A DNA stretch of 6,354 nucleotides, taken from the IMG/VR virus record IMGVR_UViG_2778261419_000005; one strand, written 5' to 3'. This document shows, in pieces, positions 2,244 to 4,715 of this stretch (position 1 is its first letter; every line of letters starts with the position of its first letter). The translations under genes and the position numbers were made by a program. The DNA is from a virus (lineage: Duplodnaviria > Heunggongvirae > Uroviricota > Caudoviricetes). The notes beneath the pieces were generated by a model, which was not told the origin of the DNA, did not search any database, and saw only the letters and a program-made list of their open reading frames with translations.

Positions 2244-4715
2244 ATGAGTAAAGTCTTTATTTGCGCCGCTATTCCTGACGAACTGGCAACAAGGGAAGAA
2301 GGCGCTGTGGCTGTAGCCACAGCCATTGAAGCTGGCGACGAACGCCGTGCTCGAGCAAAATTTCACTGGCAGTTCCTGGAACATTATCCGGCTGCTCAGG
2401 ACTGCGCTTATAAATTTATTGTCTGCGAGGATAAACCTGGCATACCCCGCCCTGCCCTCGATTCATGGGATGCTGAATATATGCAGGAAAACCGCTGGGA
2501 TGAGGAGTCTGCTTCTTTTGTCCCGGTTGAGACTGAATCCGATCCGATGAACGTCACTTTTGACAAGCTGGCCCCTGAAGTACAGAACGCTGTCATGGTT
2601 AAGTTCGACACATGTGAAAACATCACCGTTGATATGGTTATTAGCGCACAGGAATTGTTGCAGGAAGACATGGCAACATTCGACGGACATATCGTTGAAG
2701 CGTTGATGAAAATGCCAGAAGTTAACGCCATGTATCCGGAGCTTAAGTTGCACGCCATTGGGTGGGTTAAGCATAAATGTATTCCTGGTGCTAAATGGCC
2801 CGAAATTCAGGCAGAGATGCGCATCTGGAAAAAACGTCGCGAAGGTGAACGCAAGGAAACCGGAAAATACACGTCTGTTGTTGATCTCGCCCGCGCCAGA
2901 ACCAATCAACAGTACACTGAAAATTCAACAGGAAAAATCAGCCCGGTCATTGCTGCCATTCATCGCGAATACAAGCAGACATGGAAAACACTGGATGACG
3001 AACTGGCCTACGCTCTCTGGCCTGGTGATGTGGATGCCGGAAACATTGACGGCAGCATCCATCGCTGGGCAAAAAAAGAAGTTATCGACAACGACCGCGA
3101 AGACTGGAAGCGTATCTCGGCATCAATGCGCAAACAGCCTGATGCCCTTCGCTACGACCGCCAGACTATTTTTGGCCTTGTCCGTGAGCGTCCGATCGAC
3201 ATTCACAAAGATCCCATAGCACTGAACAAATATATCTGCGAATACCTGACGACAAAGGGCGTGTTTGAGAATGAAGAAACAGACCTGGGCACTGTTGATG
3301 TTCTCCAGTCATCAGAAACACAAACTGATGCAGTGGAAACTGAGGTATCTGATATCCCAAAAAATGAAACCGCGCCGGAAGCTGAACCATCTGTAGAGCG
3401 TGAGGGGCCGTTCTATTTCCTCTTCGCAGATAAGGACGGAGAAAAATACGGTCGCGCAAACAAACTTTCTGGTCTGGATAAGGCACTGGCTGCTGGCGCC
3501 ACTGAAATCACAAAAGAAGAATATTTTGCCCGAAAAAATGGCACATACACGGGCTTACCGCAAAATGTAGATACCGCTGAAGATTCAGAACAACCAGAGC
3601 CGATAAAAGTTACCGCTGACGAAGTAAACAAAATTATGCAGGCAGCCAATATCAGCCAGCCTGACGCCGATAAGTTGCTTGCTGCATCACGTGGTGAATT
3701 TGTTGAAGGGATTAGTGACCCGAATGATCCGAAATGGGTTAAGGGGATCCAGACCCGCGATTCTGTGAACCAGAACCAGCATGAATCGGAACGGAACTAC
3801 CAAAAAGCGGAACAAAACAGCACAAATGCGTTACAAAACGAGCCAGAAACGAAACAGCCTGAACCAGTGGCGCAACTGGAAGTGGAAAAAGTCTGCACCG
3901 CCTGCGGTCAGACCGGCGGCGGCAACTGCCCTGATTGTGGCGCGGTGATGGGCGACGCAACATACCAGGAAACATTCGATGAAGAGTATCAGGTTGAAGT
4001 TCAGGAAGATGATCTGGAGGAAATGGAAGGCGCTGAACATCCACACAAGGAGAACACTGGCGGCAATCAGCATCACAATAGCGATAATGAAACTGGCGAG
4101 ACGGCAGATCACTCAATTAAGGTGAACGGTCATCACGAAATCACATCCACCAGCAGGACGTGTGACCATCTAATGATCGACCTTGAAACCATGGGAAAAA
4201 ATCCTGATGCCCCGATCATCTCAATAGGTGCAATATTTTTCGATCCGCAAACCGGAGATATGGGACCGGAATTTAGTAAGACTATCGATCTGGAAACTGC
4301 TGGCGGAGTCATTGATCGGGACACCATTAAATGGTGGCTTAAGCAATCACGCGAAGCGCAATCTGCCATTATGACCGATGAAATCCCGTTAGATGATGCA
4401 CTGTTACAATTGCGGGAATTTATCGACGAAAACTCCGGTGAATTTTTTGTTCAGGTTTGGGGAAATGGAGCCAACTTCGACAACACGATTTTGCGCCGTT
4501 CATACGAACGGCAGGGGATCCCCTGCCCGTGGCGTTACTACAACGATCGCGATGTACGCACAATCGTTGAGCTGGGGAAAGCCATAGACTTCGATGCCAG
4601 AACGGCTATTCCATTCGAAGGTGAGCGCCATAATGCACTTGATGACGCCCGTTACCAGGCAAAATACGTTTCAGTTATCTGGCAAAAACTGATCCCGAGT
4701 CAGGCTGATTCTTAA
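2244..4715 (+). CDS. Large modular protein (823 aa) with C4 zinc ribbon and C-terminal DEDDh (DnaQ-like) 3'-5' exonuclease domain
   Basis: ATG at 2244 with SD GAGG ~10 nt upstream; TAA stop at 4713-4715. Exo motifs read directly: Exo I MIDLET (D646/E648, nt 4179-4187), Exo II GNGANFD (D746, nt 4479-4481), Exo III [13 protein letters not shown] (H796/D801, nt 4629-4646). CxxC-x7-CxxC zinc ribbon at aa 551-565 (nt 3894-3938). N-terminal ~340 aa have no motif I recognise; aa ~341-630 are acidic/polar low-complexity linkers. Confidence 0.88.
   Translation: [823 protein letters not shown]

Follow-up and report, generated by a model that had tools for sequence, protein, structure and literature searches.

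A ydfE-type prophage gene encodes a RecE paralogue with its nuclease head exchanged for a DexA-type DEDDh exonuclease domain

We analysed a stretch of 6,354 nucleotides (nt), hereafter the window, from the Caudoviricetes record IMGVR_UViG_2778261419_000005 of IMG/VR. Its open reading frame (ORF) at 2244-4715 encodes a protein of 823 amino acids (aa) and, judged by its sequence, is the intact form of ydfE (b1577), a pseudogene of the Qin prophage in Escherichia coli K-12. Sequence comparison establishes the protein as a RecE paralogue that carries, in place of the RecE nuclease head, a DEDDh 3'-5' exonuclease of the DexA type: according to the alignments, residues 1-625 are homologous to RecE 1-591, the non-catalytic body, and the catalytic head alone differs. 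The reading that we favour, with slightly better than even confidence and in part by analogy, is that of a scaffold-tethered 3'-5' DNA exonuclease without an annealase, which would be made on derepression of the early-left operon and would degrade the DNA of competing phages or of the host. The family was already catalogued and its parts have known folds, and current understanding is not overturned; what is new here is the common RecE scaffold with a swapped head, and the correlation of the head type with the presence of an annealase. The parts of the gene are given below.

2244-4715, plus strand: intact ydfE-type gene, 823-aa ORF with an ATG start, encoding a scaffold homologous to RecE and a DEDDh head
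2230-2233, plus strand: GAGG, Shine-Dalgarno-like, 10 nt 5' of the ATG, identified from sequence
2244-2918, plus strand: N-terminal module (aa 1-225) of the Pfam YdfE_N type, with an alpha/beta subdomain (1 to ~100) and a helical subdomain (105-225)
2979-3263, plus strand: central helical domain (aa 246-340) of the Pfam YdfE_C type, modelled by AlphaFold2 with a predicted local distance difference test score (pLDDT) of 94-98 and matched to RecE by BLASTP
3396-3560, plus strand: small folded alpha/beta domain (aa 385-439) with disordered acidic linkers on either side, AlphaFold2 pLDDT 92-97
3668-4110, plus strand: mosaic module common to K-12 recE at the DNA level (blastn, 77.9% identity; BLASTP)
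3675-3761, plus strand: short peptide motif (aa 478-506) with the core LAAxRGE[FY]VxGISDPxDPKW, inside a variable linker, a candidate partner-binding motif
3894-3938, plus strand: CxxC-x7-CxxC zinc ribbon (aa 551-565), placed by motif position and also present in RecE
3957-4145, plus strand: acidic tether (aa 572-634) between scaffold and head, predicted to be disordered from composition and a pLDDT below 50
4167-4682, plus strand: DEDDh 3'-5' exonuclease head (aa 642-813), PF16473, with the catalytic residues D646, E648, D746, H796 and D801

The relation to RecE (exonuclease VIII of the Rac prophage in K-12) was evident at several levels. By BLASTP, aa 262-625 aligned with K-12 RecE 278-591 (E 1e-59), and from about aa 470 onwards the two were nearly identical, zinc ribbon and acidic linker included; in the short motif they differed by a single E/D exchange. 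The alignment ended exactly at the start of the RecE nuclease domain, with nothing significant past RecE residue 591, and Pfam gave no match to PD-(D/E)XK or DUF3799. In blastn, window positions 3668-4110 (aa 475-623) matched recE codons 455-589, again ending just before the head junction. The central helical domain corresponds to RecE ~290-375. BLAST showed no similarity of the N-terminal 240 residues to RecE; by hhalign, a profile of homologues of aa 5-240 aligned with RecE 6-259 (Exonuc_VIII homologues of RecE 1-270) with a probability of 98.1% (E 8e-14, 219 columns). The NCBIfam equivalog for exonuclease VIII (NF007259) matched aa 246-625 only (model positions 271-602) with 280.4 bits, below its cutoff of 1269.

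The gene also sits in the slot that recE fills in Rac: both lie late in the early-left operon, on the integrase side and 3' of a kil-type gene (kilR in Rac, dicB here). The differences are that the nuclease gene here abuts xis-int, that it has no recT partner, and that the PD-(D/E)XK 5'-3' double-stranded DNA (dsDNA) exonuclease domain of RecE (~600-866) is absent, with the DEDDh 3'-5' exonuclease in its place.

As a separate observation, the leader 5' of dicB (window 1700-1758) was 88% identical to the region 5' of Rac kilR (L004 8250-8309), so that a kil-type gene leader is common to Qin and Rac; it might be regulatory.

These comparisons change part of the original prediction, made from the letters alone. 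That reading had the ORF and its extent right, and every motif that it listed was found at the residues given, as were the long acidic linkers (D/E content of 35% at residues 561-600, with disorder predicted). It had asked whether the motif at aa 478-506 is held in common with RecE-family proteins; K-12 RecE has this motif with hardly a change, and has the zinc ribbon and acidic linker too. The protein is not the unrelated multidomain nuclease then envisaged, nor an orphan, considering that thousands of genomes carry the same or nearly the same gene and that a full-length PHROG family and new Pfam families cover it. The N-terminal ~340 aa, which had been called unassignable, comprise Pfam YdfE_N and YdfE_C and are a remote homologue of the RecE N-terminus. 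Two outcomes that the prediction had named as fatal to it were likewise not seen: the C-terminal domain is not a PD-(D/E)XK nuclease, and the equivalog score, the head and the missing recT do not fit a routine RecE orthologue with its annealase lying outside the window.

The nature of the head was clear from both profile and structure. The Pfam family PF16473 (Rv2179c-like) matched aa 642-813 over profile positions 2-177 of 177, with 226.5 bits against a cutoff of 27 (E 2.3e-67), and a weak, sub-threshold RNase_T match covered the same stretch. The motifs DLET (646-649), GNGANFD (740-746) and HNALDDA (796-802) supply the catalytic D-E-D-D and His as ExoI DxE, ExoII NxxxFD and ExoIII Hx4D. Across the family, each catalytic column is either invariant or conserved to at least 90%, and in an alignment with DexA, D646 and E648 match its D7 and E9. 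AlphaFold2 modelled the head (635-823) with pLDDT >90. The best Foldseek match of this model in the PDB was T4 DexA (8KEN/8KEL; E 2e-10, target TM score 0.62-0.69), followed by RNase T, oligoribonuclease, REXO2 and Cap18, an exonuclease of a CBASS operon; a PDB profile search with the head retrieved 8KEL as well (E 2e-15). The Pfam search and the AlphaFold and Foldseek modelling that had been proposed earlier thus bear out the predicted DnaQ-like DEDDh domain of the Rv2179c/RNase T kind. A head-only isoform starting at the internal M644 was considered and dropped because no Shine-Dalgarno-like sequence was found upstream of that codon.

Among solved proteins, T4 DexA (exonuclease A) is the best match of the head in both sequence and structure. 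The two have the DEDDh fold and the Pfam/PHROG neighbourhood (phrog_255) in common, and their catalytic residues align. Their identity is ~22%, and DexA is a stand-alone protein of 227 aa with extra loops and helices, whereas the head described here is fused behind a 640-aa scaffold. In the alignment, S87 and W152 of DexA are replaced by P715 and Y766.

Kang et al. (Nucleic Acids Research 2025; PMC12153337) solved DexA and reported that its E. coli homologue EcD digests T4 DNA and DNA with 5-hydroxymethylcytosine (5hmC), but not unmodified dsDNA, that EcD protects cells from T4, and that K-12 is without DexA homologues. The EcD accession HAK9828821.1 was not found in the cluster member lists. 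We therefore compared the head with an EcD-like 189-aa IMG/VR protein recognised from the published primers, an identification that is probable considering that the forward primer is exact, the reverse primer has one extra A, and Ala78 is present. This protein was 38% identical to aa 644-816 (E 3e-34). By its sequence the head is an EcD homologue and no more than a candidate for the HREX class of modification-dependent defence exonucleases. Both EcD and the present protein have a DexA-family head, are enterobacterial, and are absent from K-12. EcD stands alone with ~190 aa and falls into a different subgroup, whereas the head here is fused. Three positions were compared in particular, two of which, the aromatic Trp152 and the acidic Asp169, are those that the EcD paper proposes for the recognition of 5hmC. 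Where EcD has Ala78, Asp718 is kept here, matching the tetramer-interface residue D90 of DexA in both BLASTP and MAFFT alignments. At the W152 column EcD has Trp and the present protein Tyr766, and the family varies between Y, W, V, R, C and F. DexA D169 corresponds to F783, flanked by D782 and D784, in a loop whose alignment is unreliable.

These relatives also bear on the substrate. The head might instead act on RNA or small nucleotides in the manner of Rv2179c, RNase T and oligoribonuclease, and so degrade transcripts of host or phage, or the nucleotide second messengers of defence systems. The name of the Pfam family, taken from the exoribonuclease Rv2179c, would agree with this, as would the run of structural matches that follows DexA (RNase T, oligoribonuclease, REXO2 and Cap18). 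However, the closest proteins by sequence and structure, T4 DexA and EcD, are DNA exonucleases, and the scaffold is common to the dsDNA exonuclease RecE. We regard an RNA or small-nucleotide substrate as quite improbable.

The head type was accompanied by a difference in gene neighbourhood. In relatives with a RecE-type head, recT lay immediately downstream (K-12 Rac, P0128 and P0223), whereas DEDDh-head genes were followed directly by xis-int. For 23 long-form DEDDh loci we inspected three ORFs upstream and two downstream, 110 proteins in all; they included 21 integrases, 8 excisionases, 14 Rrf2-like proteins and repressors of the helix-turn-helix type, and Pfam recognised no RecT, ERF or Rad52 among them. 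Likewise, no annealase appeared among the 25 most frequent families listed for the three ORFs upstream of 38 stand-alone heads. The 48.7-kb genome of phage PhiR42_1, which carries the gene, has no annotated annealase or Gam, and in the window the 72-nt gap between the nuclease gene and the excisionase leaves no space for an annealase gene. The RecE-head side of this contrast is small, at three loci, but the contrast is clean. The comparison of genomic neighbourhoods suggested in the original prediction therefore supports its statement that an annealase is missing, for the window, for PhiR42_1 and for the 23 long-form loci, which belong to other Enterobacterales.

Considering that the entire scaffold is RecE-homologous and that the gene occupies the same slot, a role in recombination or repair has to be weighed at this point. 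The scaffold would then bring the 3'-5' exonuclease to double-strand ends or gaps, where it would work with host RecA, RecFOR or RecBCD, or with an annealase provided in trans by a co-resident prophage, for example by trimming 3' flaps or non-homologous tails in recombination-dependent replication. Full-length RecE, unlike its nuclease domain alone, boosts linear-linear recombination (PMC11611040), and a survey of lambdoid phages places DnaQ-type nucleases within some Rec modules (PMC12315714). With a median of 2 and a maximum of 10 matching places per E. coli genome, partners acting in trans are plausible. The neighbourhoods speak against such a role, as no annealase lay within three genes upstream or two downstream at the 23 long-form loci while relatives with RecE-type heads always had recT adjacent, and a 3'-5' exonuclease would remove the very 3' tails that RecT, Red-beta and RecA use. 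In the same survey, DnaQ-type genes next to int are explicitly not counted as members of Rec modules. The idea of a Chi-rich phage without a Rec module, from the same source, was tried on PhiR42_1 and not retained: this genome, which has no annotated Rec module, carries four Chi sites on the plus and two on the minus strand against ~1 expected per strand, and this enrichment (6 vs ~2) is not striking, a point against the recombination role. We consider that role unlikely, although it deserves more weight than an RNA substrate.

The polarity opposite to that of RecE and the absence of an annealase in any lineage examined make it improbable that the protein serves as the nuclease part of a two-component recombinase, and for the same reasons we rank a DNA-degrading role above a recombinase role. 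From the identity, architecture, homology, gene context and conservation of the gene we infer a DNA substrate, a function of the scaffold and a biological role as follows. The protein would be made when the dicBF (PL-like) operon of a Qin-type lambdoid prophage is derepressed. The scaffold would place the flexibly tethered DEDDh head, which is predicted to strip nucleotides from DNA 3' ends by two-metal catalysis with D646, E648, D746 and D801 and with H796 as the general base. The resulting DNA degradation may serve lytic development or competition between phages, and may be aimed at the chromosome of the host or at a superinfecting phage, whose DNA might be modified. Such a role would parallel, by analogy, those of T4 DexA and its E. 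coli homologue EcD, and the EcD paper (PMC12153337) lends some indirect support to the defence or anti-defence factor suggested in the original prediction, which may yet apply. DicB, encoded in the same operon, excludes phages that inject their DNA through ManXYZ (PMC10448788; see also PMC6832061).

Selection was examined against two E. albertii copies, where in the substitution-rich comparisons the ratio of nonsynonymous to synonymous substitution rates (dN/dS) was 0.11-0.39 across the N-terminal, central, middle and head segments.

Several points weigh against a DNA-degrading role in conflict. For the full-length protein, the case is built from sequence and predicted structure. No defence-system model in PADLOC matched, and the residues linked to 5hmC in the EcD paper are only partly shared, with Tyr766, the ambiguous Asp169 position and the retained Asp718. 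Rv2179c, the naming member of the Pfam family, is an exoribonuclease, which makes an RNA substrate possible. The operon is repressed in lysogens (PMC10448788), so that constitutive defence of a lysogen is unlikely unless expression is leaky, spontaneous or separate. Fold searches with the scaffold, the part common to a recombination enzyme, gave no functional lead, and together with the genomic slot the scaffold could equally mean a role in recombination. If the DNA-degrading reading holds, the gene is a candidate nuclease of phage-phage or phage-host conflict, related to the DexA/EcD pair. Since plaque-forming phages that carry it are in culture (PhiR42_1, HannyBb, mEp460 and Tritos), these questions are directly testable.

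The exchange of heads is also a natural experiment on what the 590-residue RecE scaffold does, and this scaffold matters for linear-linear recombineering. AlphaFold2 modelled aa 1-345 from 43 sequences with a pLDDT of 91.8, as an alpha/beta part (1 to ~100), a helical part (105-225), a disordered segment (226-245) and a second helical part (246-340). In a second model, covering aa 346-823, the alpha/beta domain at 385-439 was confident, the helices at 458-530 were moderately so, and the zinc ribbon reached a pLDDT of ~70. Disorder was predicted at 346-376, 440-455, 531-547 and 572-634. The alpha/beta domain was 37-64% identical in relatives. Of the whole scaffold, the central domain was conserved most widely, and it occurred in relatives of every head type. 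Of 97 family proteins, 23 carried the motif LAAxRGE[FY]VxGISDPxDPKW, whatever their head type and in otherwise variable linkers; on this sequence pattern it behaves like a candidate short linear interaction motif. The zinc ribbon noted earlier is real, being CxxC-x7-CxxC at 551-565 and common to RecE and the Escherichia forms, but is not a core feature, as only 6 of the 97 members have it. A more far-reaching idea, which we hold as speculative and rather doubtful, is that the RecE-type scaffold is a general delivery platform: the central domain and the motif would dock onto one partner from host or phage, or onto a DNA structure, and the flexible tether would then offer whatever head recombination had placed on it (5'-3' PD-(D/E)XK, 3'-5' DEDDh or none). 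The DEDDh version, which most E. coli genomes have, would on this idea borrow the targeting of RecE as a weapon of inter-phage conflict or host takeover. If this were true, the partner would explain the N-terminal two-thirds of RecE and the need for the full-length protein in linear-linear recombineering.

To see how scaffold and head are combined, 1.84 billion cluster representatives were scanned by HMMER with aa 1-345, which gave 168 clusters at E ≤0.001. Segment mapping, Pfam and genome scans distinguished three head states, namely DEDDh, PD-(D/E)XK/DUF3799 and no Pfam-recognisable domain; the N-terminus was of one of two types, YdfE_N or Exonuc_VIII, and a single kind of central helical domain was common to the family. 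Both nuclease heads occurred with both N-terminal types. The combination of YdfE_N with DEDDh was found only in Escherichia (E. coli, E. ruysiae and E. albertii), and that of Exonuc_VIII with DEDDh in Klebsiella, Citrobacter, Kluyvera, Dryocola, Buttiauxella, Atlantibacter and others. The head also stood alone (~190 aa) at ~38 loci in Enterobacter, Serratia, Providencia, Erwinia and others. The lambdoid survey (PMC12315714) mentions in passing both DnaQ-like 3'-5' nucleases that lie close to int in early-left operons but outside Rec modules, and RecE-related proteins without a recognisable nuclease domain ("RecE-2"). Both classes belong to the present family; in the text consulted, neither the fusion nor the swapped head is described, nor is the correlation with an annealase.

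Three further observations concern single members or groups of this family. One locus (L014, JAGZPX010000007.1), labelled as a Veillonella parvula metagenome-assembled genome, combines a RecE-type N-terminus with a head 100% identical to the one described here, and so shows directly that modules were exchanged recently; almost certainly, this contig is Escherichia DNA that was mis-binned. In P0232 (locus L008 6001-8259), an Exonuc_VIII protein with a DEDDh head, the motifs read DLKTMG (Glu to Lys) and SFAN (ExoII Asp to Ala). Judged from these substitutions the head is probably inactive, yet the rest of the gene is intact and its position is the usual one. The relatives P0126, P0130, P0133, P0140, P0148, P0155, P0159, P0180 and P0182 (e.g., L010 6001-8109), of ~700-790 aa, have a YdfE-type scaffold and a C-terminal stretch of 250-350 residues without a Pfam match, and lie before xis-int with no recT. 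They may have a third, unrecognised type of head or no head at all, and are possibly the "RecE-2" proteins of the survey.

The identity with ydfE followed from alignment to K-12. Window positions 1690-3010 matched the Qin genes dicB-ydfD-ydfE with 99.7% identity, the match stopping at IS2E, an IS2 element. The first 767 nt of the gene (2244-3010) correspond to the part of K-12 ydfE that precedes the IS2E insertion at codon 256, with one substitution seen in residues 1-255, and positions 5195-6354 are the 3' part of K-12 intQ with 99% identity. K-12 lacks window positions 3011-5194 (compared with L003 5844-6549), having IS2E at codon 256 and a loss of ~2.2 kb that took away the remainder of ydfE, the xis gene and the 5' end of int. 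The window copy is thus the intact counterpart of a K-12 pseudogene that stands in the same dicB-ydfD-ydfE operon and retains only the first 255 residues. The insertion and the loss left K-12 without a DexA-family exonuclease, and this event probably explains why the gene was never studied. In K-12, ydfE is the last cistron of the dicBF operon, transcribed from dicBp, repressed by DicA and listed as uncharacterised (PMC10448788). As K-12 YdfE ends at codon 255, the Pfam names YdfE_N and YdfE_C cover only the front third of the real protein; in precomputed annotation, proteins 95-100% identical to aa 1-345 carry PF27430 (YdfE_N) and PF27432 (YdfE_C). In PHROGs, phrog_2082 ("exonuclease") matches end to end, at positions 1-822 of 823.

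The gene is widespread and ranks among the commonest prophage genes of E. coli. Its DNA matched 4800 of 5426 complete E. coli genomes (~88%), with at least 80% coverage in 3537 (~65%), and many copies were 100% identical. PGAP names the chromosomal copies "exonuclease" or "3'-5' exonuclease". The phages PhiR42_1, HannyBb, mEp460_ev081 and Tritos have 81-100% of the window in common at 95-99% identity, and their records name the gene "exodeoxyribonuclease VIII" or "exonuclease". It is also present in PPompW prophages of enterohaemorrhagic E. coli.

Besides the nuclease gene, the plus strand of the window carries the following genes.

1774-1962, plus strand: dicB, cell-division inhibitor (Pfam DicB, E 2e-40; K-12 synteny), upstream in the same operon
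1959-2150, plus strand: ydfD, lysis protein (Pfam DUF1482), directly upstream of the nuclease gene
4788-5039, plus strand: excisionase (Pfam DUF1233, E 2e-31), 72 nt 3' of the nuclease gene
5059-6354, plus strand: tyrosine integrase of the intQ type (Pfam Arm-DNA-bind_2 and Phage_integrase), 99% identical to the 3' part of K-12 intQ

By Pfam, the other ORFs of the window were assigned to DUF977, DicB, YdfD/DUF1482, excisionase and integrase, and the remaining minus-strand ORFs were unassigned (one with a sub-threshold Slx4 match). Alignment to PhiR42_1 and K-12 identified the latter as remnants of replication gene O and of a cII/YdaT-type gene. Compared with PhiR42_1 and K-12 Qin, the window lacks 2106 bp at 1690/1691, which held the whole immunity region together with the first part of the early-left operon (dicC/cro, dicA/cI, dicBp, ydfA, ydfB, ydfC and dicF), so that a minus-strand cII/YdaT-like gene fragment now adjoins the dicB leader. 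The same junction occurs in the natural genome NZ_CP116929.1, which covers it in a single piece at 100%. As neither the repressor nor the only known promoter of the operon is left, this genome may not express dicB, ydfD or the nuclease gene. Scans for promoters and terminators near the nuclease gene found sites no more numerous than in shuffled sequence, and an Rfam scan of the window found no family over threshold, DicF being absent because its region is deleted. In addition, a 22-bp deletion relative to PhiR42_1 at 1113/1114 splits replication protein O into two out-of-frame minus-strand ORFs (464-1096 and 1108-1461). The two deletions together mark the element as a defective prophage.

Such damage raises the question of whether the gene is part of a decaying remnant, with no current function and persisting only as cryptic prophages persist. 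The IS2-disrupted pseudogene in K-12, the lost promoter and immunity region and the frameshifted O gene in the window, and the two missing catalytic residues of P0232 would all agree with decay. On the other hand, full-length copies are present in 3537 of 5426 genomes and in plaque-forming phages, dN/dS stays at 0.11-0.39 in the informative domain comparisons, and the catalytic residues are conserved across genera. For the gene as a whole we consider this explanation very improbable.

Finally, some minor observations concern neighbouring genes in relatives and the window itself. At 14 of the 23 long-form loci, all outside Escherichia (L018-L053), a winged-helix protein of the Rrf2 type (112-127 aa) lies within the three ORFs upstream, often directly, and fills the place of dicB and ydfD. 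Stand-alone heads, for example at L025, L030, L040, L042, L044, L051 and L073, lie directly before xis-int. Among the three upstream ORFs at each of the 38 stand-alone loci, seven carried DUF2303 (YfdQ-like), with DUF551 and YfbR-like nucleotidases also frequent; ORFs of ~275 aa upstream at the loci just named are the likely DUF2303 carriers. In the window, a minus-strand Chi site (GCTGGTGG) lies at 4147, inside the nuclease gene.

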